A DNA stretch of 64,000 nucleotides from a virus. A program made the translations under genes and the position numbers. Under the pieces are notes generated by a model that ran no database searches, was not told the origin of the DNA, and saw nothing but the letters and a program-made list of their open reading frames with translations. Each line of letters begins with the position of its first letter. The stretch's first letter is position 1. Of the stretch, positions 3,683-32,344 are shown piece by piece. Location of the stretch: IMG/VR virus record IMGVR_UViG_3300025418_000694, positions 31,818 through 95,817 of that record; one strand, written 5' to 3'.

Positions 3683-3721
3683 CTGAGAATAGTCTGAGAA
3701 TAGTCTGAGAATAGGCTGTGA
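3683..3721 (+). repeat. 11-bp-period CTGAGA/CTGTGA array (MprA/PhoP-like boxes)
   Basis: TG of the units at 3684, 3695, 3706, 3717. Confidence 0.85.
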
Positions 3722-3731
3722 ATAATGGGCG

Positions 3732-3757
3732 GGAATAAATAGGTGATAGGTTTGGTT
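3732..3757 (+). promoter_or_regulatory. SigR/SigH-type promoter P1 (sigma gene, autoregulatory)
   Basis: GGAAT 3732-3736, 18 bp, GTT 3755-3757. Confidence 0.8.
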
Positions 3758-3799
3758 CACTAAGCAAGTGAGCAAGGGGCTCACTGATAGGGGTACAAA

Positions 3800-4294
3800 A
3801 TGGACAAGGCACAACTAAGCAAGGACATACTAAACTATCAAGGGATGCTTTATGGTTACGCCATGAAACTAACTAATGGCAATTCACATGACTCTCTCGA
3901 TTTGGTACAGGATACTTTCGAGAAAGCGCTCGCTAATAGTGAGAAGTTTGACGGGGCTAATCTTCAAGCGTGGCTTCACACTATCCTCCGCAATCAATTC
4001 ATCAACGTTTACCGCAAGCAGTCTCGCATGGTAGTGGCTGATGAAACCGCGCTAGTGGAATTAGAAACAGAAACCGCGCCTAGCGCAGAGTACCGCGCAA
4101 TTTTCAATCACTTTTCGCCTAAAGTCTCTCAAGCCTTACAGGCTCTAGGGGATGACTTTCTAAAGGTTGTCTACCTAGTAGACATAGAGGGTTTCACTTA
4201 TGAGGAAACCGCTAATCAACTAGGCGTTAAAACCGCCACAGTAGGCACACGCCTAAACCGCGCACATAAGGTTCTAAGGGAGGCTCTAGCATGA
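3800..4294 (+). CDS. ECF sigma-70 factor, SigH/SigR-like
   Basis: Region 2 LYGYAMKLT..DLVQDTF..NLQAWLHTILRNQFINVYRK and region 4 VYLVDIEGFTYEETANQLG...TVGTRLNRA resemble actinobacterial SigH/SigR. Confidence 0.9.
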   Translation: MDKAQLSKDILNYQGMLYGYAMKLTNGNSHDSLDLVQDTFEKALANSEKFDGANLQAWLHTILRNQFINVYRKQSRMVVADETALVELETETAPSAEYRAIFNHFSPKVSQALQALGDDFLKVVYLVDIEGFTYEETANQLGVKTATVGTRLNRAHKVLREALA

Positions 4295-4383
4295 ACCCAC
4301 TCACAAGCGGACTCCCAATCACAATTCTGTGGTTGGGGGCGAGCATAAGTTTCTACCTACTGATTAGGGACTTAACGAAATAA
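4291..4383 (+). CDS. 30-aa single-pass membrane peptide coupled to the sigma gene
   Basis: ATGA overlap; MNPLTSGLPITILWLGASISFYLLIRDLTK; followed by a hairpin. Confidence 0.55.
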   Translation: MNPLTSGLPITILWLGASISFYLLIRDLTK

Positions 4384-4385
4384 GA

Positions 4386-4409
4386 AGGGGCGCGGGAAAC
4401 CGCGCCTCT
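4386..4409 (+). terminator. hairpin after the sigma operon
   Basis: AGGGGCGCGG-GAAA-CCGCGCCTCT. Confidence 0.6.
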
Positions 4410-4515
4410 CTCTCGATTCCCCGTAGGGGTATGGGGAGGGTGGGCCAACACAAACAATTGGCATTGGGAGCAAGGCATTAGGGAAGTGTTTACAATTCCC
4501 TAAAAGTGTTTATTC

Positions 4516-4579
4516 CTGAGAGATTCCTGAGAATTATCTGGAAATTACCTTAGGGAATAATAACCAACCCTAACCCGTT
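4516..4579 (+). promoter_or_regulatory. 11-bp array plus SigR/SigH-type promoter P2
   Basis: Units at 4517, 4528, 4539; GGAAT 4554-4558, N18, GTT 4577-4579. Confidence 0.8.
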
Positions 4580-4620
4580 ATACAGGTACAAGGTCGGAAA
4601 CGCCGACAAAAGGGGAAAAA

Positions 4621-4911
4621 ATGAACCACTTATACAAAAGCAATTATTCAAGCCTTACTGATGTAGATGTACAGATGGATGTACGCGACAGCACCAACGG
4701 GGATGTCATGTTCGAGATGAACATGTCTAGTTGGCATGATAATAATACCTATCATGTCATGGAGCAATTCATCCTTACAGAGGCGCAGGCGCGCTCACTA
4801 AAAGAAGCACTAGAGACTTATCTAGAGGCTAAGTATGATGAGCGTGAAGCAGTTGCCCTAGCGCAATTTGACGCAGTACGTGACGACCTATTTGAAGTGG
4901 AGGCAGAATAG
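4621..4911 (+). CDS. hypothetical early protein
   Basis: AAGGGG RBS; downstream of P2. Confidence 0.65.
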   Translation: MNHLYKSNYSSLTDVDVQMDVRDSTNGDVMFEMNMSSWHDNNTYHVMEQFILTEAQARSLKEALETYLEAKYDEREAVALAQFDAVRDDLFEVEAE

Positions 4912-5135
4912 TGGAAACACTATCAGCACTAGCAATTAAGAAAGATTCGGTGACTAGAGAAATGCTAGCCAGCGAGTTAGATGAAATGAACGCAGATTCA
5001 CGCGCCTATTGTCTAATGCAGGTAATCGGACACCTAGAGTTAGACAAGGCACAAGGTCAAGAGTTATTCCCACTCTGGACAGCGTGGGTTACTGCTCGCA
5101 GTATTAACAATGACGCTTACGGATTGAGGGACTAA
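4911..5135 (+). CDS. hypothetical early protein
   Basis: Overlap-coupled. Confidence 0.6.
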   Translation: METLSALAIKKDSVTREMLASELDEMNADSRAYCLMQVIGHLELDKAQGQELFPLWTAWVTARSINNDAYGLRD

Positions 5136-5410
5136 TGGGACATAATTTCGCACAAGAATTGGCTAGCGGGGAGTTAACACTCCCCCTAGAGGAGGCTATA
5201 GCGATTCACCTAAGAAGTAATCACTATCCACCCGTACCGCTTTCTATGGTAACCCCCTGTATAGAAGCCATAGATAAATGCAACGAGGGTGATTCTGGCG
5301 CGCTAATAGACTTACCCGATCCAATTAAATGGAAAGGCGCAAGCCAAGCACCAGCGTATGCAGTAATAGAAGGTCATCACTTAGAACCATGGGTTCAATG
5401 GGATGACTAA
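5135..5410 (+). CDS. conserved hypothetical phage protein
   Basis: HLRSNHYPPVP...CIEAI...HHLEPW motif; TAATG coupling. Confidence 0.65.
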   Translation: MGHNFAQELASGELTLPLEEAIAIHLRSNHYPPVPLSMVTPCIEAIDKCNEGDSGALIDLPDPIKWKGASQAPAYAVIEGHHLEPWVQWDD

Positions 5411-5417
5411 CCCCAGA

Positions 5418-5444
5418 TAGGGAGGCTACCCCCTAGCCTCCCTA
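5418..5444 (+). terminator. hairpin after the P2 cassette
   Basis: TAGGGAGGCTA-CCCCC-TAGCCTCCCTA. Confidence 0.6.
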
Positions 5445-5628
5445 ATTTGAAATGCTTGCCAAAAGCAAGGCGTGTTATGCCGCAGCCATAACCGAGGACT
5501 CACTCGAACTGGGATTAAAGCCACCAAATCGGTGGCTTTACTATTTAACTCCCTGACGGCATTGGGTTAGGCATTGACCAACACAAACATTAGGCTTTCG
5601 GGTATTGGCGCAAACTCCCCAAACAAAA

Positions 5629-5702
5629 CTGAGAGATTTCTGAGAATTGGCTGAGAATTGCCTGGAAATAGCGGCGGGAATAAATTGGGGTTATGAGCCG
5701 TT
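5629..5702 (+). promoter_or_regulatory. 11-bp array plus SigR/SigH-type promoter P3
   Basis: Units at 5630, 5641, 5652, 5663; GGAAT 5677-5681, N18, GTT 5700-5702. Confidence 0.8.
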
Positions 5703-5746
5703 ATACAGATGAATAGCCACACGGGTTATTCGGGAAAGGTAATCAA

Positions 5747-5941
5747 ATGCTAACTGATACACAATCTCGCGAGATTAACCATCTCGTATTGCAATTATCT
5801 GCTGATTTAACAGTAGCGCCCGACTTTATAGTTGAGGCTATCCGCGAGGATGAAAGCGTAAACGCGCTAGTCTATCGCTGGCTCACACGTGGGGGAGTGG
5901 AATACCGCTCAATCCTAGACCTACTCAATGGGATGTTCTAA
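5747..5941 (+). CDS. hypothetical early protein
   Basis: GAAAGG RBS after P3. Confidence 0.6.
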   Translation: MLTDTQSREINHLVLQLSADLTVAPDFIVEAIREDESVNALVYRWLTRGGVEYRSILDLLNGMF

Positions 5942-6147
5942 TGATTAAATTCCCACACACAATTAAATTGGTTGCTGAATTAGATGAAAATAATCCAAGC
6001 ACCAAGGCGCTCCAAGCGCTACCAGAATACCTACAGCATAAATTGCTTGAAGAAGCGTTTATTGGAGCACTAAATAGATTAAGCGTGTTTGATACCATAA
6101 ATGAGGGCTCAACATGGGGAATAGTTAAGGTGGATACCAATGGATGA
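5941..6147 (+). CDS. hypothetical early protein
   Basis: TAATG coupling. Confidence 0.6.
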   Translation: MIKFPHTIKLVAELDENNPSTKALQALPEYLQHKLLEEAFIGALNRLSVFDTINEGSTWGIVKVDTNG

Positions 6148-6265
6148 ACAAGCCGAGCGTATCAAGGAGCGCATGTCCGAGGAGTTAGATGACATCCTAG
6201 CCAATGGAGACCTGCAAGCGTTCGAGGAATTATTCGAGGATCGAGACCCGTTCGAATTCCTATAA
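6140..6265 (+). CDS. small acidic protein (41 aa)
   Basis: Read by hand: MDEQAERIKERMSEELDDILANGDLQAFEELFEDRDPFEFL; AAGGTGG RBS. Confidence 0.55.
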   Translation: MDEQAERIKERMSEELDDILANGDLQAFEELFEDRDPFEFL

Positions 6266-6271
6266 CAAAAG

Positions 6272-6304
6272 TGGGGCGGGAATAAAAAGCCCGCCCCAAT
6301 CGTT
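6272..6304 (+). promoter_or_regulatory. SigR/SigH-type promoter P4 embedded in a hairpin
   Basis: GGAAT 6279-6283, N18, GTT 6302-6304; TGGGGCGGG/CCCGCCCCA arms. Confidence 0.75.
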
Positions 6305-6326
6305 ACAGCAACAGAAGGGAGGAAAC

Positions 6327-6659
6327 ATGGAAAATGAAGTAGATGTGCTGCTTAAGCGCCTAAAAGAATTGGGCGTAGAGGCTAAGCCCGTTCGTGTCAA
6401 TGAGCGCCAAAAGGCTACGCTACAAAAAATTGTAGAGGCTGATGTCGCTATTAAAGAAGCGCGGGAAACTATCAAGCAGGCTACAGAAAATTGGCGCGTA
6501 TCTAGGGAAACACTAGACCGCCTATTAGTAGAAGCCCGTAAGATGAAAGTAACCCAAGCAGAAATTGGCAAAGCCCTTGGTATTAGCAATGGCTCTGTAT
6601 CAAGTAGGACAATTACGGCACGCCGTAGAGTCCGTAAAAGAAACCGCACCAAGAAATAA
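6327..6659 (+). CDS. coiled-coil protein with C-terminal HTH
   Basis: GGGAGG RBS before MENEVD; VTQAEIGKALGISNGSVSSR HTH. Confidence 0.7.
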   Translation: MENEVDVLLKRLKELGVEAKPVRVNERQKATLQKIVEADVAIKEARETIKQATENWRVSRETLDRLLVEARKMKVTQAEIGKALGISNGSVSSRTITARRRVRKRNRTKK

Positions 6660-6782
6660 CCGATAAATTTCTGAGGCTATCCGTCGCCAATCGAAGCCGT
6701 AATTGCCTCAGTTCCCCAAAGTAGGTGGTTGGTTCCCACCTGCTAGAGCGCGGGTATACCTTCCCCCCGCGCTCACCCCTAA

Positions 6783-6954
6783 AATGTTTGTGTTGAACCC
6801 GCCCGCCCACATGCCTGAAGGGAATAAGCCAATTGGACAATTGTTAAACAATTGTCCAACACAAACATTCCTAGCCCAAAGTGAACATTAGGTGAACATT
6901 ACCTGAGAGAAACCTGTGAATAGAGATGGGAATAATGAGAGGGTAGTATCCGTT
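6783..6954 (+). repeat. composite regulatory module A (inverted CAACACAAACA boxes, 27-bp palindrome, 11-bp array, promoter P5)
   Basis: Palindrome 6833-6859; units at 6882, 6893, 6904, 6915; GGAAT 6929-6933, N18, GTT 6952-6954. Confidence 0.8.
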
Positions 6955-7002
6955 CTACTATTGAAAGCGAAACCAACCAAGCGCTTTCAGAATAGGACAA
7001 AA

Positions 7003-7386
7003 ATGAACACAACTGACACTCTTACAGTATCAAACGAGTTTACTGTAGGCGAACTATGGGAAGCAGTCTGGGGCTGTGACGGAGCGGGCATGGTCTATTG
7101 GTGCTCTAAAATCCGCACTCCAGAAGGCAAGGACATCTATCTTTTCCTCAACAAAGGTGATGAATTTGTCCCCAACCCTCAACCTGTCAAAATTTATGAC
7201 ACGACAGGCGTTACTCCTAAAACCTACGTGGTAACTGTCGAGGATTTGCGCCGAGGCTACGAACTAGCACTCAAAGCAGGTCAGACACATTGCGGAGGTT
7301 ATCCTCTAGAAATTGACGACGCCGACTCCTGTTTCGGTGACATGGTTATACAGTACGCAATCTTTAACGAATTAGTCTACGGATAG
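7003..7386 (+). CDS. conserved hypothetical phage protein
   Basis: AGGA RBS before MNTTDT; C-terminal D.D..CFGDMVIQYAIFNELVYG signature. Confidence 0.7.
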   Translation: MNTTDTLTVSNEFTVGELWEAVWGCDGAGMVYWCSKIRTPEGKDIYLFLNKGDEFVPNPQPVKIYDTTGVTPKTYVVTVEDLRRGYELALKAGQTHCGGYPLEIDDADSCFGDMVIQYAIFNELVYG

Positions 7387-7397
7387 GAAGGGAAAAC

Positions 7398-7532
7398 ATG
7401 AGCGAAGTAGTATGGCAGAGCCAAATCACAGAGGACATGGTTCAAGATGTAAGCGCCCGTTCGTTCTTATTTGAGGAATTGGACGACGCGGTAATGCGAA
7501 TTTGTCAGGAATACGGGGTAAAATCCCTATGA
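7398..7532 (+). CDS. microprotein (44 aa)
   Basis: Read by hand; GGAAGGG RBS; MSEVVWQSQITED... Confidence 0.55.
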   Translation: MSEVVWQSQITEDMVQDVSARSFLFEELDDAVMRICQEYGVKSL

Positions 7533-7675
7533 GCCGTAGACACTTTCGCGCCCTAGCCGAAGCCCTAAAGGACTCAGGCGCTAGTTATCAGACTGTGGCT
7601 GCTATTGCTAGAGTCTGTGCCAATGAAAACCCAAGATTTGACTCCTCTAAGTTCTTTGAGGCGTGTGGCGTATGA
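7529..7675 (+). CDS. microprotein of the NPRFD..F..AC phage family (48 aa)
   Basis: MSRRHFRALAEAL...NENPRFDSSKFFEACGV; ATGA overlaps. Confidence 0.65.
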   Translation: MSRRHFRALAEALKDSGASYQTVAAIARVCANENPRFDSSKFFEACGV

Positions 7676-7839
7676 CTACCTATAACACAGTAGTGCGCTT
7701 ATACGCCTCAATAGAGGCAGAAACAGAGGAACAAGCAGAGTCAAGACTCCATGACTACATGAATAGCGTGGGTCTAGTTCCTAGTAATTGCGTTGTAGTC
7801 GCCGATTATGACGTAACAGACTTCGACAAGGAGGATTGA
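7672..7839 (+). CDS. microprotein (55 aa)
   Basis: ATGA overlap; MTTYNTVVRLYASIEAETEEQA. Confidence 0.55.
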   Translation: MTTYNTVVRLYASIEAETEEQAESRLHDYMNSVGLVPSNCVVVADYDVTDFDKED

Positions 7840-7939
7840 CGGAGACTAGCCGAGCCTGTCCTAGCCGTAATTGTATCCGTCAAGGGCGGTGGGAAGTAAA
7901 AAGCCCACCGCTATACAAAAAGCGCGGAAATGTCTAAAT

Positions 7940-8121
7940 TGTTTGTGTTGACCCACCCACCCACGTACCTAAATACGACATCTTATTCCGCAATAAGCGG
8001 AATAAGCATTTGGGCTAATTGTTTAACAATTAGCCCAACACAAACATTCCCGCCCCAAGATGAACATTAGATGAACATTAACTGAGAGATTGCTGAGAGA
8101 TTACTGAGAGAAGGCTGAGAG
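7940..8121 (+). repeat. composite regulatory module B (homologue of A)
   Basis: Palindrome 8010-8038; six units at 8061, 8072, 8083, 8094, 8105, 8116. Confidence 0.8.
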
Positions 8122-8272
8122 CCAATCTATAGTAGAGTGAGAGTCTGCTATAGATTAAAAATGGACACGCCTTCGGCTACTGTCTAAAGAACGAAGTGAG
8201 AGTGTAGCGATACGTCCAGATTATTGCTATATGTCCGATTTGTCTTATATGATAACAATCTCTGCGATTACT

Positions 8273-8335
8273 GTTCACCTTCCGTTCACCTTCCGTTCAT
8301 CTACTTAGGGGAATATATATCTACTCTATTCCGTT
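8273..8335 (+). promoter_or_regulatory. triple PHO-box-like repeat plus SigR/SigH-type promoter P6
   Basis: GTTCA(C/T)C at 8273, 8284, 8295; GGAAT 8310-8314, N18, GTT 8333-8335. Confidence 0.75.
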
Positions 8336-8394
8336 CTATCCATGTACGACAAACACTAACCGCGCCAATGGCGCACTATTAGAAGGAAGGCAGT

Positions 8395-9774
8395 ATGACA
8401 CTAGCAGTATTGGTGGAGACCTTAGAGGGCGAAGCGCGCTCACAGACTCTCCTATTCCCTCACAAGGGAGAAGTGCGGATTTATCACCGCCTCTCAACAG
8501 GTCAGGCAGGACGTGGACAGACATGGTCTCACCTATCTGATATAGAGGATTTGCCCGACACTCTCCTATCCAAGAAACCCGTAGCCGTTGTCCTCACCGA
8601 GCGCGATACTGCTCTCGTTGATACAGGACTCGTTACCAATATCGGTGCTAAGGCTCTCTATGCCTATGAAAGTGCCGACCCTGTTACCGCGCCAATCTCA
8701 CACAGAGATAGCGTTCTAGACCTTAAAACTCGATTCGAGTCAGGAGACAACTCTCTCTCTGATTTGATTACCGATAAACGTCGTAATCAGGGTGTAATTC
8801 TAACCCCGTTGAGCGCGACCCCGAACGTGACCTTTATTAAGCAAAGTGAGCCTATCAAGCAAGAAGTAACAATAGGCGCACACGAAAGCACACGTCTCGC
8901 CTATGAAAATATGATTACTGTTCCCGACCAAAAGTGGTCACGTGATTATATAAACCGCTACTTTGAGGACGGCAAGTCCGACTTCGAGATTTATGACTAC
9001 GCAGATTCTAACGATATAAACGTTCTAATCGAAGGTGGCGCTGGTTCAGGCAAGACCATGAGTGTAATCGCCTATGCCTCTGCTAGACAGAAGCGTTATT
9101 TCAACGTCTCCTCTAATGCTGGTATTGACCCTAGCCAACTATTCGGGCGCTGGATTCCTAGAGAGGACGGACATGGTTATCGCTGGCAGGACGGCGCAGT
9201 CACTCTCCTAGTTCGACATGGCGGAGTTCTACTCCTCAATGAAGTGAACTTCATGCCCGAACGTATTATGACAGTTCTCTATTCCTTACTAGATGACCGA
9301 CGTGAGATTCAATTATTGGATAACGGCGGTGAGGTTATTAAGGCTCACAAAGACCTGCTAATCGTGGCAGACATGAACGCTGGTTATCGTGGCACTCACG
9401 AACTATCACAGGCTAACAATGACAGGTGGAAAATTAAACTAGAGTTTCCTTACGATAAGAAAATCGAAAGCAAACTAATCAAGTCTAAGGCTCTGCTGGA
9501 ATTGGCTCAAAAGTTACGTGACCGATTCGACCTAGATGAACTCACAACTCCAATCTCGACACGTGGTCTAGTAGCACTACAAAATAACGTGACGGGTCTA
9601 GGCTTGAACTTCGCAATTACTTCTTACGTCAATGGATTCGACAAAGATGAACGCGTGGCAGTTCGTCAGGTAATCGAAACAATGAAGTGGAATATCGCAA
9701 CCGACTTCGGTGTAAAGGTTGAAGTCGAACCTACAGATTCAATCGTAACCGAGACAGTAAAGGTGGATAACTAA
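8395..9774 (+). CDS. MoxR/CbbQ/CobS-like AAA+ ATPase
   Basis: Walker A GGAGSGKT, variant Walker B LLLNEVN, LSQANNDR, ISTRGL. Confidence 0.9.
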   Translation: MTLAVLVETLEGEARSQTLLFPHKGEVRIYHRLSTGQAGRGQTWSHLSDIEDLPDTLLSKKPVAVVLTERDTALVDTGLVTNIGAKALYAYESADPVTAPISHRDSVLDLKTRFESGDNSLSDLITDKRRNQGVILTPLSATPNVTFIKQSEPIKQEVTIGAHESTRLAYENMITVPDQKWSRDYINRYFEDGKSDFEIYDYADSNDINVLIEGGAGSGKTMSVIAYASARQKRYFNVSSNAGIDPSQLFGRWIPREDGHGYRWQDGAVTLLVRHGGVLLLNEVNFMPERIMTVLYSLLDDRREIQLLDNGGEVIKAHKDLLIVADMNAGYRGTHELSQANNDRWKIKLEFPYDKKIESKLIKSKALLELAQKLRDRFDLDELTTPISTRGLVALQNNVTGLGLNFAITSYVNGFDKDERVAVRQVIETMKWNIATDFGVKVEVEPTDSIVTETVKVDN

Positions 9775-9775
9775 T

Positions 9776-11734
9776 ATGGGTCGCCGTCGCCGTCGCAATA
9801 ATGGACTAATCTCTGAATTGGATTCCCTATCCACAGGACGTGGACTCCATGAACGTATCAACGATAACAATGAGTGGGAACTCTATGATGAGGAAAGCGG
9901 TTTAGCAGTAACCCATGCCGAACTAGTCGCAAAATACACAGAGCGCGCTAACCGACTCAATGCGGTGGCACAGGTGTACGAACGTGTAGATAGGATTCTC
10001 ACCAATGAGGATATTACTGTTCGTGTAATCAACGATAAGAATATGGATACCAATGCCCGTTCCAATGGAAAGGATATTGAACTCAATGCCAATCTAATTG
10101 AGGATTTATCTGACGAAAGTATTATGAGCCTTCATGGTCTGAACTATCACGAACTAGCGCACGTGGAGTTCTCTCCCCGTCAGGGTTCAGACTTAGGAAT
10201 ATACGTTCGCGATAATAAACTGTTTAAGGCAATCGCAATTCTAGAGGAAGGTCGCGCTGAACAATTACTGCTCAAAAAGTATCCTTCAATTCGACCTTAC
10301 CTAGAAGCAAGTGTTTATACCTACGTGTTAGCAGACCAGCCTAGTGATTGGGGAACTAAGTTTCATCTAATCACAGGTCGCACCTACTTACCACTAGAAA
10401 TTAGGCAATCTATTCTAGACAAAGCAATCGTTCAATACGGATATGAAATTGTCTCCAACGTTCACTCGATTATCCATGCCTATCGTGACTTAGTGTTCCC
10501 TGCTGATTTCGATAAGGCTAAAGAACTCGCACACAGACTCGCCAATATACTCGGACATGATGAGGATTCTAATAATTCAGGTTCAAGTTCTAGTGAAGGT
10601 TCAGAGGAGTCTAAGGACTCAAAAGGTATCACAGGTGTAGGCGGTGGGTGCGGTCTGCCTAGTAAGGGCAGACCAGCAAGCGGAAAGGAGCAGGCTAAGT
10701 ATCAAAGCCAGCCCTCTAATGATAAATTAGAAAGCCTCAACACAAACAGGTCGCAAAGCGATAGCGGTTCAGGTAGCGAAATTGAAACTCAATCGGTCAA
10801 TGATTCAGATTCAGAAATTACTGCCAAAGATGTTGAAGTGGCTCATGCTCTCAATGAGCGCATGAACCAACTAAAGCAGGACTCTCGCGTTAAGCGCGAA
10901 GTCAAGGACACTCGAAATGCGATTCTCGGTTCAGGTGAGGCTAAGGCTGATATTCCAACAGGTGACACTATGGAAATCGCACCTTCTATGGGAGCAATCT
11001 CAATGGCAAAGCGATTCAGCACAGAGTTAGAACGCATAGTGCGAAACAATGACCCTGCTTGGGTAGGTCGCACTAGAAGTGGTCGCCTGAATATCTCTCG
11101 CACCATGAACCCTGATGTCAATGCTATCTCTGAAATGTTCGACCAATGGGATATTGGTAATGAAGCCACCGATATAGAAGCGGTTATCCTTACCGATAAT
11201 TCAGGTTCAATGGGCGGTTCAATGAAAGCAGTATGCGAGAACACTTGGATTCTAAAGCGCGCTATCGAAAGCATAGAAGGTTCAGTAACCGCCTTCTCCT
11301 TCGATTCTGATACTGAACTGCTCTACTCTAAAGATGATAAGGCTAAGTCTAGAGTAATGAAGTTCGTGGGTTCACGTGGAAGCACTAACCCACTACGCGG
11401 AATTATCGAAGCAGACCGCATATTGACCTCATCTAAAAAGTCAATCAAGATTCTATTTATAGTTACTGACGGGGATTGGGAGCGCCAAGAACAATGCGAC
11501 GACCTAATCAAGTCTATGAACAATAAGGGATTCCTGACGTGCGTAGTGTTCTTAGGTGATTTCAAGTCCTATCAGAACCTAATCGAGCAGTCTGCTAGAG
11601 GTGATGACCGCGCTACTAATTACTTAAAGGCAATACGTCACCACGCCAAAGTGTTCCACGCTGTTACCAACACCGCAGATATTCTCAAAGTGGCAAGTAT
11701 GCTAGTCAAATCAACTCTAAAGAAGGTGGCTTAG
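9776..11734 (+). CDS. vWA (MIDAS) partner of MoxR with N-terminal HExxH domain
   Basis: YHELAHV; Ser-rich linker; DNSGSMG, GSTNP, VTDG. Confidence 0.85.
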   Translation: MGRRRRRNNGLISELDSLSTGRGLHERINDNNEWELYDEESGLAVTHAELVAKYTERANRLNAVAQVYERVDRILTNEDITVRVINDKNMDTNARSNGKDIELNANLIEDLSDESIMSLHGLNYHELAHVEFSPRQGSDLGIYVRDNKLFKAIAILEEGRAEQLLLKKYPSIRPYLEASVYTYVLADQPSDWGTKFHLITGRTYLPLEIRQSILDKAIVQYGYEIVSNVHSIIHAYRDLVFPADFDKAKELAHRLANILGHDEDSNNSGSSSSEGSEESKDSKGITGVGGGCGLPSKGRPASGKEQAKYQSQPSNDKLESLNTNRSQSDSGSGSEIETQSVNDSDSEITAKDVEVAHALNERMNQLKQDSRVKREVKDTRNAILGSGEAKADIPTGDTMEIAPSMGAISMAKRFSTELERIVRNNDPAWVGRTRSGRLNISRTMNPDVNAISEMFDQWDIGNEATDIEAVILTDNSGSMGGSMKAVCENTWILKRAIESIEGSVTAFSFDSDTELLYSKDDKAKSRVMKFVGSRGSTNPLRGIIEADRILTSSKKSIKILFIVTDGDWERQEQCDDLIKSMNNKGFLTCVVFLGDFKSYQNLIEQSARGDDRATNYLKAIRHHAKVFHAVTNTADILKVASMLVKSTLKKVA

Positions 11735-27371: not shown

Positions 27372-27581
27372 TTAAAAGTCTCGTTTCCAATGCAGATAAG
27401 AACGAACATAGGTGGCTGCGTAGGCTAAAGATGCAAATATAAAACCGTATTGGTGGGTTGTTATTGCATAGGTCATCCAGAGGCACTCATTAAAACCAAG
27501 TACAAACCAGCCCCACATTGATTTTTGACCTACAAAGTAAATACCAGTAACGCCAATTATGGCTAGCACCCATGACCACAT
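27372..27581 (-). CDS. small PnuC-like membrane protein
   Basis: Three short TM segments; W.GW...NECLW..YA....QYG. Confidence 0.5.
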   Translation of the reverse strand: MWSWVLAIIGVTGIYFVGQKSMWGWFVLGFNECLWMTYAITTHQYGFIFASLAYAATYVRSYLHWKRDF

Positions 27582-27793
27582 TAGGGTCTATCCAATGGTG
27601 TAGGAGCCTTTGCATAAGTCCCACAGGAGGCGCACTCCATGTCTAAGAAATATGTTGACATTTCATAATCATCAAAGCAGGCTTTTATATTCCATACAAA
27701 TGATTTACAAACTGGGCAAATGTGGTGGACCTCATTGGCATGGTCCATCGTGCCTGTGTAATCAGGCTTTAGCTGTCGGATAGGCCTGCTCAT
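27581..27793 (-). CDS. zinc-ribbon protein
   Basis: CPVC...CASCG. Confidence 0.6.
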   Translation of the reverse strand: MSRPIRQLKPDYTGTMDHANEVHHICPVCKSFVWNIKACFDDYEMSTYFLDMECASCGTYAKAPTPLDRP

Positions 27794-28004
27794 GAAGCTT
27801 GTCCAATGCTGCTCGTTGTTCGGCCATCATCTTTTCAATTTGTTCTATTTCATCTGGAGCCAGAGTATCTTTTTGATCTTGATACATCTTTACGCCGATC
27901 TCAAAGTTCTGCTCTAAAATTTGTAGCTGAACTCTACGGCGCTCTGCTACAAAGTTTTCTGCTTCTGCTAAACGTTCAGCTCTTTTATCCTGTGTCTTAC
28001 TCAT
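27762..28004 (-). CDS. coiled-coil hypothetical protein
   Basis: E/Q-rich ORF in operon. Confidence 0.55.
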   Translation of the reverse strand: MSKTQDKRAERLAEAENFVAERRRVQLQILEQNFEIGVKMYQDQKDTLAPDEIEQIEKMMAEQRAALDKLHEQAYPTAKA

Positions 28005-28082
28005 GTTAACCCCAAATACTTAGTACAGCAGATAATAAATCAGCAAGACTTCCGTATAACAGTGCTAAGAATTTTAACGCAT

Positions 28083-28250
28083 TCATTGTCCACCCCATCC
28101 ACCGCCCTTAAAATGAGCTGGTATGGCAGACCATACACGAGACATAGTAGATTGGCAAGGCGAGCATGTAGGACTGCTTTCTTCATCAAAGGATCTTGTT
28201 ACCTCTATAGTAGAACCGCACTTGTCGCATTTATAATCGTAAGTAGGCAT
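28083..28250 (-). CDS. FmdB-family zinc-ribbon protein (55 aa)
   Basis: Read by hand: MPTYDYKCDKCG...PTCSPCQSTMSRVWS...FKGGGW. Confidence 0.8.
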   Translation of the reverse strand: MPTYDYKCDKCGSTIEVTRSFDEESSPTCSPCQSTMSRVWSAIPAHFKGGGWGGQ

Positions 28251-28799
28251 TTAGTATTTGTGCTGCTCTATCTCAATAAACGGGCCTGAGGTATAAACGT
28301 CTAGTGAAGCTGCAATCTCTAGGGCTTCTCCAATAGAAGCGCCAGCGTGAAGGGCGCCTAGCGCATAGGATGAACCATTCCCTACCCCATAAAAACCTGT
28401 GTCTGTTCTACATACAGATAGGTCGTCTGCAACATCAAATACTTCTCCGTTGACTGCTATAAGGAAATGAAACCTAGGACCGTCATCTCCTTCTTTGCGC
28501 TCTTCGTCAAAGTTGTAGCCGTTAGACTTCAAGCATTCTCTAAGTGAGGGCATGGCTTTTGCAATCATAAAGTGGTAAATGTCTTTTTTGTCCGATGCTG
28601 TAAGTGAGGGTGGCTTCCAAAGGTGCTGGGCAATGTCACATGGCTGCACCTCACCACTACCACCAATTAAGAAAGATCCTCGCTCACTAATCTTTTCCAT
28701 GTTGGGGTGCCTAAAGATACGGCCTGAGCCGTCTGTGACTTGGTTATCTGCCCCTAAGACGCATCGATCGGGGTACTGAACAGCTACTATGGTTGTCAA
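28251..28799 (-). CDS. Ntn-hydrolase, proteasome-beta/HslV-like peptidase
   Basis: N-terminal TTIVAV, GADNQVT, K, GNGSSYALGAL, DVYTSG. Confidence 0.8.
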   Translation of the reverse strand: MTTIVAVQYPDRCVLGADNQVTDGSGRIFRHPNMEKISERGSFLIGGSGEVQPCDIAQHLWKPPSLTASDKKDIYHFMIAKAMPSLRECLKSNGYNFDEERKEGDDGPRFHFLIAVNGEVFDVADDLSVCRTDTGFYGVGNGSSYALGALHAGASIGEALEIAASLDVYTSGPFIEIEQHKY

Positions 28800-30664: not shown

Positions 30665-30982
30665 TCACGACTCTTTGGTTAATACCCACTCCTTTAGTGT
30701 CATACCTGCGCGTGTCGCCTTACGCTTAAGGGCATTACGCTCACGGTGACTCATGCCACCCCAAATTCCGTGCGTGTCTTCCATCTCCTCCGCATACAGT
30801 AAGCACTGCTTACGTACGGGGCATTCAGGAAGACCGTCTTTACCGTAGCAAATAGCTTTTGCTCGGTCAGCAATATCTTTATATTGGTCTTTATCTCTTG
30901 GCGGGTACCAAGTATTAGTGTCTATTCCTCGACACTTGGCTTTGTATCTCCAAGGTTCTGGTCCGAGATCTTCGTCGTACAA
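30665..30982 (-). CDS. whiB: WhiB-family Fe-S transcription regulator
   Basis: WRYKAKC...AKAIC...CPVRKQC...GIWGGMSHRER. Confidence 0.92.
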   Translation of the reverse strand: MYDEDLGPEPWRYKAKCRGIDTNTWYPPRDKDQYKDIADRAKAICYGKDGLPECPVRKQCLLYAEEMEDTHGIWGGMSHRERNALKRKATRAGMTLKEWVLTKES

Positions 30983-31302: not shown

Positions 31303-32344
31303 GAGCGTGTTTAGAGCCTGCTTTAATAGAATCTAACACGTCACGTTCAAGGGTCTCTTGAAGATCAATTTCTTCCCGTATGGACGCTAGCATAGCATCA
31401 CTACCTTGCCATTGTCTATCCGCGTATCTGTAATAGGCACCTGCACGTGTGATGACTTTATTCAGCATTCCAATAGACAAAATCTCTTTAGCAAAGTCAA
31501 ACTGACCTGCAGGGATATCACCACCATCTGCAAAGTAGAAATCAACTATTGCTACTTGTCCAGGGGCAGCTGACTTGTTCTTTATGATTCTAATCTTGAT
31601 TGACTGGCCTACCTTGCGCTTTTCCTGCCCTGTGCCAGCCTCAATCCACTCATCACGACGGACTTCCATGCGAGTAAAGAAGGCGTAATCCTTGCCCAAC
31701 CCTCCTGGGGTAGTGCGTGGGTCTCCGTACATAACACCAATCTTTGATCTCCACTGGTTAATGATTAGTCCAATGAATGGACGCTCTGGGCGGATAAGTG
31801 AGCGCTTAGACGCCTTACCAACCTTGCGGAAGAACTTATTTGTTAGAAGAGCTCCTCGTCCAACTGTTGATTCTTCCATTTCTTTGTCGTCTTCTGCGCT
31901 AGGAACCAGAGCAGGAAGACTGTCAATAACAATGCAATCGATAGCTTTGCTTTCGACAATTTGAATGACGGCTTCATATGCCTCCTCCATTATATTAGTT
32001 GCTACTACATATACGCGTGAAGTATCCACGCCACACATCTCTGCATAACCTGCTACCCACTCTTCAGCAGCTACCCACACAGTTGTAAACTCTGGGTCAC
32101 GCTTTTGATTTGCAGCGATAGTTTTAAGGGCTAGTGCAGTTTTTCCATTGCTGGCTTCACCAACGAGTTCATGCCATTGATTAGAGGGCCAACCACCACC
32201 AAGAGCAACGTCTAATGCAACTGACCCTGTAGTAGTTCTCTTACCTGTCTCAGTAATATCTGAGCCAAGAACGATTGTGTCATCGCCCATCTTTTTATTG
32301 ATGGCGCTAAATACTTTTGCTAGATCTCCTGTTAGGGTGCTCAT
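31292..32344 (-). CDS. recA: RecA recombinase
   Basis: TTGSVALDVALGGG, GEASNGKT, VIDSLPALVP, INQWR, TTPGG, KNK. Confidence 0.93.
   Translation of the reverse strand: MSTLTGDLAKVFSAINKKMGDDTIVLGSDITETGKRTTTGSVALDVALGGGWPSNQWHELVGEASNGKTALALKTIAANQKRDPEFTTVWVAAEEWVAGYAEMCGVDTSRVYVVATNIMEEAYEAVIQIVESKAIDCIVIDSLPALVPSAEDDKEMEESTVGRGALLTNKFFRKVGKASKRSLIRPERPFIGLIINQWRSKIGVMYGDPRTTPGGLGKDYAFFTRMEVRRDEWIEAGTGQEKRKVGQSIKIRIIKNKSAAPGQVAIVDFYFADGGDIPAGQFDFAKEILSIGMLNKVITRAGAYYRYADRQWQGSDAMLASIREEIDLQETLERDVLDSIKAGSKHAHEE

Follow-up and report, generated by a model that had tools for sequence, protein, structure and literature searches.

Phased 11-bp box arrays resembling host MprA-type sites precede predicted ECF-type promoters of an uncultured actinophage

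Introduction

The virus record IMGVR_UViG_3300025418_000694 of IMG/VR is 95,817 bp long and is rated complete. Its right-hand 64 kb (positions 31,818 to 95,817 of the record), which we call the window and whose own numbering is used throughout, contains a rightward early region with five arrays of the hexamer CTGAGA and its variants CTGTGA and CTGGAA. Each array consists of two to four boxes repeated with a period of exactly 11 bp, and four of the five stand just upstream of promoters of the type read by extracytoplasmic function (ECF) sigma factors. Here we describe the arrays, their conservation in related phages and in other viral contigs, and the matching sites in actinobacterial genomes, and we weigh the hypothesis that an MprA-type response regulator of the host uses them as operators.

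Results

Five arrays with an exact 11-bp period

The locus comprises the genes and regulatory features collected in Table 1. Each array occupies an intergenic gap within the rightward early region, and the five are distributed across 4.4 kb, with a total of 17 boxes per phage genome. A first-pass annotation of this DNA had described the hexamers and their exact spacing; both hold on recounting, with its positions set 1 too high. We found 10 exact matches to the two-box pattern CTGWGA-N5-CTGWGA in the window, all of them on the plus strand and all within the arrays, vs about 1 in shuffled sequences, and a chance origin of the arrays is rejected on these numbers. Over the whole 95,817-bp genome the two-box pattern is found 10 times in forward and 0 times in reverse orientation, with 0 matches for a backwards control. 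Furthermore, in a scan for repeated hexamers, those occurring at least three times at a period of 11 are confined to these arrays, and none occurs at least three times at a period of 10 or 13. Coding tandem repeats were also considered as an account of the arrays and rejected.

The arrays are placed in a fixed register to the promoters that follow them. The promoter motif is GGAATAA-N15-(C)GTT, that is GGAAT-N18-GTT, which corresponds to the SigH/SigR type of ECF promoter; an ECF sigma gene lies close by. From the start of the last box to GGAAT at 3732, 4554, 5677 and 6929 we measured 16, 16, 15 and 15 nt, respectively, in agreement with the constant distance claimed earlier for promoters P1, P2, P3 and P5 (the array-less promoter at 6279 being counted as P4). 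Array 5, unlike the other four, has no GGAAT nearby. The arrays have the layout of OmpR/PhoB-family response-regulator operators, being direct repeats at about one helical turn (11 nt) in which conserved core units stand beside degenerate units, at or next to the -35 element.

Table 1. Arrays, predicted promoters and genes in the window
Feature	Position	Strand	Description
Array 1	3683..3726	+	Four 11-bp units starting at 3683/3694/3705/3716: CTGAGA x3, then CTGTGA; divergent region between leftward genes and sigma gene
ECF-type promoter of sigma gene	3732..3761	+	GGAATAA ... GGTTCAC; last box start 16 nt upstream
ECF sigma factor, 164 aa	3800..4294	+	Best profile actinobacterial SigH, score below curated cut-off; first operon
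Array 2	4516..4548	+	Three units starting at 4516/4527/4538: CTGAGA x2, then CTGGAA
ECF-type promoter	4554..4583	+	GGAATAA-N15-CCGTTATAC; last box 16 nt upstream
Array 3	5629..5672	+	Four units starting at 5629/5640/5651/5662: CTGAGA x3, then CTGGAA
ECF-type promoter	5677..5706	+	Last box 15 nt upstream
Array-less ECF-type promoter	6279..6308	+	Within G+C-rich hairpin, upstream of HTH gene; array-less in relatives too
110-aa protein with sigma region-4-like helix-turn-helix (HTH) only	6327..6659	+	Candidate phage-coded DNA binder
Two TGAACATTA units	6882..6902	+	11-bp period, in phase with array 4; minus strand reads TCTCAG-g-TAATGT
Array 4	6903..6924	+	Two units starting at 6903/6914: CTGAGA, then CTGTGA
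ECF-type promoter	6929..6958	+	Last box 15 nt upstream
Two TGAACATTA units	8061..8081	+	In phase with array 5
Array 5	8082..8125	+	Four CTGAGAG units starting at 8082/8093/8104/8115; no GGAAT after array; TATAGT at 8128-8133
Second 11-bp array	8273..8305	+	GTTCACC x2, then GTTCATC; PHO-box-like; last unit start 15 nt before GGAAT
ECF-type promoter	8310..8339	+	GGAATAT-N15-CGTTCTA; upstream of AAA_5/VWA operon (8395-11734)
WhiB-like protein	30665..30982	-	Marker of actinobacterial host

The phage has a G+C content of 44%, and the WhiB-like protein that it encodes indicates an actinobacterial host. The first-pass annotation had remarked that the window encodes no response regulator, and this extends to the whole phage genome, in which we found neither a Trans_reg_C (OmpR-type output) domain nor a Response_reg (receiver) domain.

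The register to the -35 element is kept in related phages

Related contigs were found with a DNA pattern that combines the array and the -35 element, which performed better; the sigma protein alone, as well as a two-sequence alignment, returned a single relative from the viral collection. The relative G406 (87.6 kb) encodes proteins that share 30-90% identity with those of this phage, in operons of the same order. It carries arrays at three equivalent promoters and none at the promoter of the HTH gene. At two of these three array promoters the last box lies 15-16 nt before GGAATAA, while at the sigma-gene promoter of G406 the last forward box is 29 nt off and GGAATAA is directly adjoined by an inverted pair. 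Across the seven aligned promoters of the two phages GGAAT-N18-GTT is invariant throughout, the full set of invariant columns being the penultimate CTGAGA, the CTG..A of the last box, GGAATAA and GTT, and the promoter-proximal box is degenerate in every case.

A scan of metagenomes added at least 19 more related contigs, which are 72-79% identical where alignable. Together with the window and G406 these contigs provide 65 distinct promoter instances, with CTGAGA upstream in 40 of them. Among 86 exact CTGAGA starts, 67 lie 15/16, 26/27, 37/38, 48/49 or 59 nt before GGAAT; because the promoter instances share descent, these counts are to be read as a footprint and not as independent observations. 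The phasing that the first-pass annotation had proposed to look for in related phages is present, and the register to the -35 element is conserved in these relatives.

Megablast of the region against cultured phages returned no match, and blastn with a typical array found no array-bearing cultured phage. The nearest cultured relatives are Streptomyces phages, at 36-40% protein identity.

Phages that lack a sigma factor carry arrays of the same kind

Scanning 2.9 million viral contigs, we found 111 stretches with three boxes, most of which are the same kind of array, with the unit consensus CTGAGAGTTTC, i.e. CTGAGA-G/A-T-T-T-C. Arrays of this kind are newly described here in more than 100 uncultured viral contigs, mostly from phages that bear WhiB and have no sigma factor. 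WhiB is encoded in 33 of 50 array-bearing records, including all 12 near-complete ones, and a sigma factor in one of 18, namely the close relative only. None of 29 other array-bearing phage records encodes an OmpR-type or receiver domain. The array-bearing WhiB phages are very different and have few genes in common with this phage; in complete 40-kb genomes every box falls within a single control region of 40-300 bp. As the arrays are found in phages without a sigma factor, the element is common to these phages in general and does not depend on the ECF sigma factor, and it looks like a general actinophage control element.

The position of the array relative to a promoter varies among these phages. 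In six loci the array, read in the TCTCAG direction, comes after a consensus sigma-A-type promoter; in five of the six (L017, L034, L095, L113 and L118) this promoter, TTGACA-N17-TATAAT, has its end 6 nt from the first TCTCAG box. The effect of an array may be positive or negative according to its position.

Palindromes of other kinds were also observed around these arrays: 44 of 115 arrays (viral loci L009-L119) have a CRP-like TGTGA-N6-TCACA no more than 120 nt away, and a LexA-like GAAC-N4-GTTC is found near 21 of the 115.

Matching sites precede mprA-like, pepD-like and sigB-like genes in actinobacteria

Actinobacterial genomes were scanned for three-box arrays at one genome per species, and 401 Actinomycetota genomes were surveyed for counts. 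Three-box arrays are numerous in actinobacteria. The two-box pattern was counted 8 times in one uncultured Actinomycetota genome and 9 times in another, with 0 occurrences of the control. Both genomes have one TCTCAG-N5-TCTCAG site just 5' of a gene for an OmpR-family regulator, and another in the gap that follows the kinase gene and precedes the protease gene. The operon runs regulator, kinase, HtrA/PepD-type protease and MoaB, which is the same order as mprA-mprB-pepD-moaB2. Three orthologues of the regulator (84-100% identical) have TCTCAG-N5-TCTCAG 36-37 nt before the start codon, with spacers that differ, and several more distant homologues have degenerate versions of the boxes. Another box site is located 48-64 nt before the gene of a 341-aa sigma factor with regions 1.2 to 4, which we call sigB-like on account of these regions and of the adjacent principal-sigma-like gene.

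MprAB exerts positive control over mprA, pepD and moaB2, and sigE and sigB are under its direct regulation (PMC3544749). The box sequence of the phage arrays equals that of the sites at the mprA-like, pepD-like and sigB-like genes of the Actinomycetota genomes, so that its core, YTCTCAGG, and its 11-bp period match at genes that had been predicted beforehand as MprA targets. The first-pass annotation had likened the reverse complement of the boxes to the M. tuberculosis MprA box, given there as TCTCAG-N5-TCTCAG, and had given TCACAG as the M. tuberculosis PhoP core. Its likening of the boxes to an MprA site was a prediction that could have failed, and the finding of TCTCAG-N5-TCTCAG upstream of these three kinds of gene supports, in silico, the label "MprA-type box".

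Related sites were seen elsewhere. Three loci of 38-43% G+C from small Actinomycetota genomes (L401, L403 and L404) have an OmpR-family regulator gene preceded by TTTCAG-N5-TTTCAG, 9 nt and GATAAT, a layout equal to that at the mprA-like genes with a box that differs by one base. A lone box pair in one small genome is upstream of uvrC and has no bearing on the question. The genes downstream of the three-box arrays of Streptomyces are not response regulators; in several species, at loci including L135, L162, L163 and L204, three-box CTGAGA arrays occupy a conserved site beside a GDSL-lipase-like gene.

Other elements near the arrays

The second 11-bp array, at 8273-8305, has the same register to GGAAT as the CTGAGA arrays, and its unit conforms to the core of the repeat bound by Streptomyces PhoP, G(G/T)TCAYYYR(G/C)G (PMC2275107).

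Two modules, at 6775-6925 and 7928-8125, share 79% identity; a perfect palindrome in them shows compensating changes, and their folds have z-scores of -4.5 and -3.2. On the minus strand of both, TCTCAG-n-TAATGT is followed by GTTTGTGTTG and next by a strong hairpin and its U-rich tail, and the two may represent short leftward transcripts, about 60-70 nt long. Extra matches to GGAATAA-N15-GTT at 6821 and 7999, in which the -10 part falls inside the palindromes of the two modules, may be additional ECF-type promoters. A CAACACAAAC box is present upstream of arrays 2-5 (4446, 5579, 6857 and 8036) and in inverse orientation at 6786 and 7941; elsewhere among the viral contigs the same box adjoins 12 of 115 CTGAGA arrays.

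Farther along, genes for an HslV-like peptidase, two small zinc-ribbon proteins and an SLT transglycosylase are located at 27581-28799 of the window (minus strand) and at 27723-28280 of the genome. Homologues of these proteins are found in 19-31 array-bearing viral loci, from phages that are otherwise very different.

Discussion

A host regulator as the candidate binder

The account that we favour, and that we hold with confidence and doubt in about equal measure, is that an MprA-type regulator of the host binds the arrays head to tail, one protomer per unit, and aids RNA polymerase with the phage ECF sigma factor at four early promoters. Judging from the DNA sequence, the phage probably ties its early genes in this way to a stress signal of the host. 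Under this hypothesis the arrays would be operators for an OmpR/PhoB-family response regulator, of the MprA type, that the phage does not encode. Protomers would line up head to tail, each on one 11-bp unit; the conserved distal CTGAGA units would nucleate binding and the degenerate promoter-proximal unit (CTGTGA, CTGGAA or CTGATA) would be filled cooperatively. With the array ending 9-10 bp upstream of the GGAAT -35 element, the protomers would come to lie on one face of the helix beside RNA polymerase. The promoters would be read by the phage ECF sigma factor, possibly by a host ECF sigma factor at first, and the regulator would co-activate four early operons, the sigma gene among them; such co-activation would tie early expression to the envelope-stress two-component signal of the host. 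That the factor is supplied by the host clade is favoured by the presence of the arrays in diverse phages that lack a sigma factor. What we infer is that the regulator binds, that it does so cooperatively, that it activates instead of repressing and that it conveys a stress signal; a link between the arrays and the phage's own entry is speculation.

Several observations weigh against this account. The host sites read TCTCAG toward the gene and overlap the -35 element or the spacer, with a -10-like hexamer following at 1 or about 9-12 nt, whereas the phage arrays read CTGAGA toward the gene and lie upstream of the -35 element, so that both orientation and promoter distance differ from those of the host sites; a host-like appearance is confined to the minus strands of arrays 4 and 5. 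The T-rich spacers are conserved in the phage units and missing from the host sites, a difference that could reflect a different protein, or DNA bending. Among 27 small Actinomycetota genomes there was no close orthologue of the regulator, the best having 45% identity; exact box pairs are rare in these same genomes, six loci from which have 37-43% G+C. In one Streptomyces genome the closest homologues of the regulator were without boxes. The existence of array-less ECF promoters indicates that arrays are not obligatory, and in one group of 40-kb phages a consensus promoter lies 6 nt upstream of the array, which puts the array in a repressor-like position. Finally, regulator boxes predicted in phage genomes are unreliable and often fail binding tests (PMC10976474).

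Alternative explanations

Some of these points would be accounted for if the arrays were bound by a protein encoded by the phage, or by a host protein outside the OmpR family, the resemblance to the MprA box being the product of convergence or mimicry. We consider this unlikely. Its candidates on the phage side are the region-4-only HTH protein (6327-6659), WhiB and the small zinc-ribbon proteins of array-bearing phages. It agrees with the conservation of the phage units at all 11 positions (CTGAGAGTTTC), unlike the host sites, as well as with their opposite orientation and with the operator position behind a consensus promoter in some phages. WhiB in every near-complete array-bearing record would also fit, yet this co-occurrence is expected from the shared host phylum. 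The two small zinc-ribbon proteins and the HslV-like peptidase recur in 19-25 array-bearing loci; however, no protein shared by these phages has a fold of a kind known to recognize tandem direct repeats, the only homologue of the HTH protein is in the close relative, and the core and period of the boxes match the MprA target sites predicted in advance.

A quite improbable alternative is that the host regulator does bind but that the arrays act negatively, by repressing or blocking transcription, by driving leftward antisense or small RNAs, or by titrating the phosphorylated regulator and blunting the envelope-stress response of the host. The number of boxes, multiplied by phage replication, would suit titration, but a sponge needs no fixed register, and the register to GGAAT is kept across diverged relatives. 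Leftward transcription draws on the minus strands of arrays 4 and 5, where TCTCAG-n-TAATGT resembles the TCTCAG-n-TANNNT of the host and is followed by the strong hairpin and U-rich tail, yet arrays 2 and 3 are without a leftward -10-like element. Repression would agree with arrays downstream of a consensus promoter in some phages, although the positions found here, at about -45 to -90, are typical of activators. We regard as most improbable of all that the arrays are replication-origin iterons or bent DNA resembling an UP element, with no sequence-specific regulator. Helix-phased T-rich spacers could bend DNA, DnaA-box-like sequences stand beside arrays in a few other contigs, and array 1 is located at a switch in transcription direction; but the spread of the five arrays over 4.4 kb, each before a promoter and with no single cluster, led us to reject iterons, and the UP element was rejected because the invariant part is the CTGAGA core and not an A/T tract, the arrays being moreover insufficiently A/T-rich.

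Relation to known systems

The operators of Streptomyces coelicolor PhoP consist of two to six direct repeat units of 11 nt each, in which occupancy spreads cooperatively from core units to poorly conserved ones (PMC2275107). The phage arrays share with them the exact 11-nt tandem direct repeats near the -35 element and the well-conserved units beside poor ones, and the second array of the phage (8273-8305) fits their GTTCAYYY core. They differ in that the main phage core is CTGAGA, in being located on a phage, in their association with ECF-type rather than principal-sigma promoters, and in that binding is predicted. With the mycobacterial MprAB-SigE/SigB circuit (PMC3544749) the phage has in common the core and period of the box and the placement of boxes before the gene of a stress-type sigma factor. 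Unlike that circuit, the arrays have two to four boxes instead of two and another orientation and position relative to the promoter, and the sigma factor is phage-encoded and closest to the SigH profile.

That phage genes can be under a two-component regulator of the host is already known from cyanophages, in which genes are controlled by host PhoBR via Pho boxes, with gel-shift evidence (PMC10976474). In both cases a lytic phage places sites of a host OmpR/PhoB-family regulator (predicted here) before its own genes and would read host stress. The cyanophage system uses a phosphate signal, single or paired boxes, auxiliary genes and the host polymerase; this phage has long phased arrays, with predicted binding, before early operons and its sigma gene. 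Furthermore, in the activation complexes of GlnR and PhoP of M. tuberculosis tandem protomers are arranged head to tail (PMC10235972, PMC11825685): four protomers, as tandem dimers, occupy four promoter-adjacent sites and contact RNA polymerase, which is the picture that we propose for the four-box arrays. Those complexes involve sigma-A, with region 4 displaced from the -35 element, unlike the phage, where the -35 element is kept and would be read by the ECF sigma factor with the array upstream of it.

Implications for actinophage biology

As a wider and rather doubtful proposal, uncultured actinophages may share an undescribed control region made of sites for host regulators, namely MprA-type and PhoP-type 11-bp arrays, often beside CRP-like or LexA-like palindromes, which in this lineage would be wired to a phage ECF sigma factor and stand before the sigma gene. 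Such a phage would bring along a version of the host's MprAB-to-sigma feed-forward loop, and envelope damage of its own making would set off its programme.

If the arrays bind an envelope-stress regulator, this lineage times its early genes by a two-component signal of the host together with a sigma factor of its own, a combination of which we found no description in the literature searched. The arrays would in that case offer a testable handle on the sensing of host state by phages of freshwater and other uncultured actinobacteria and, as a cis-element, they could help to assign such phages to their hosts.

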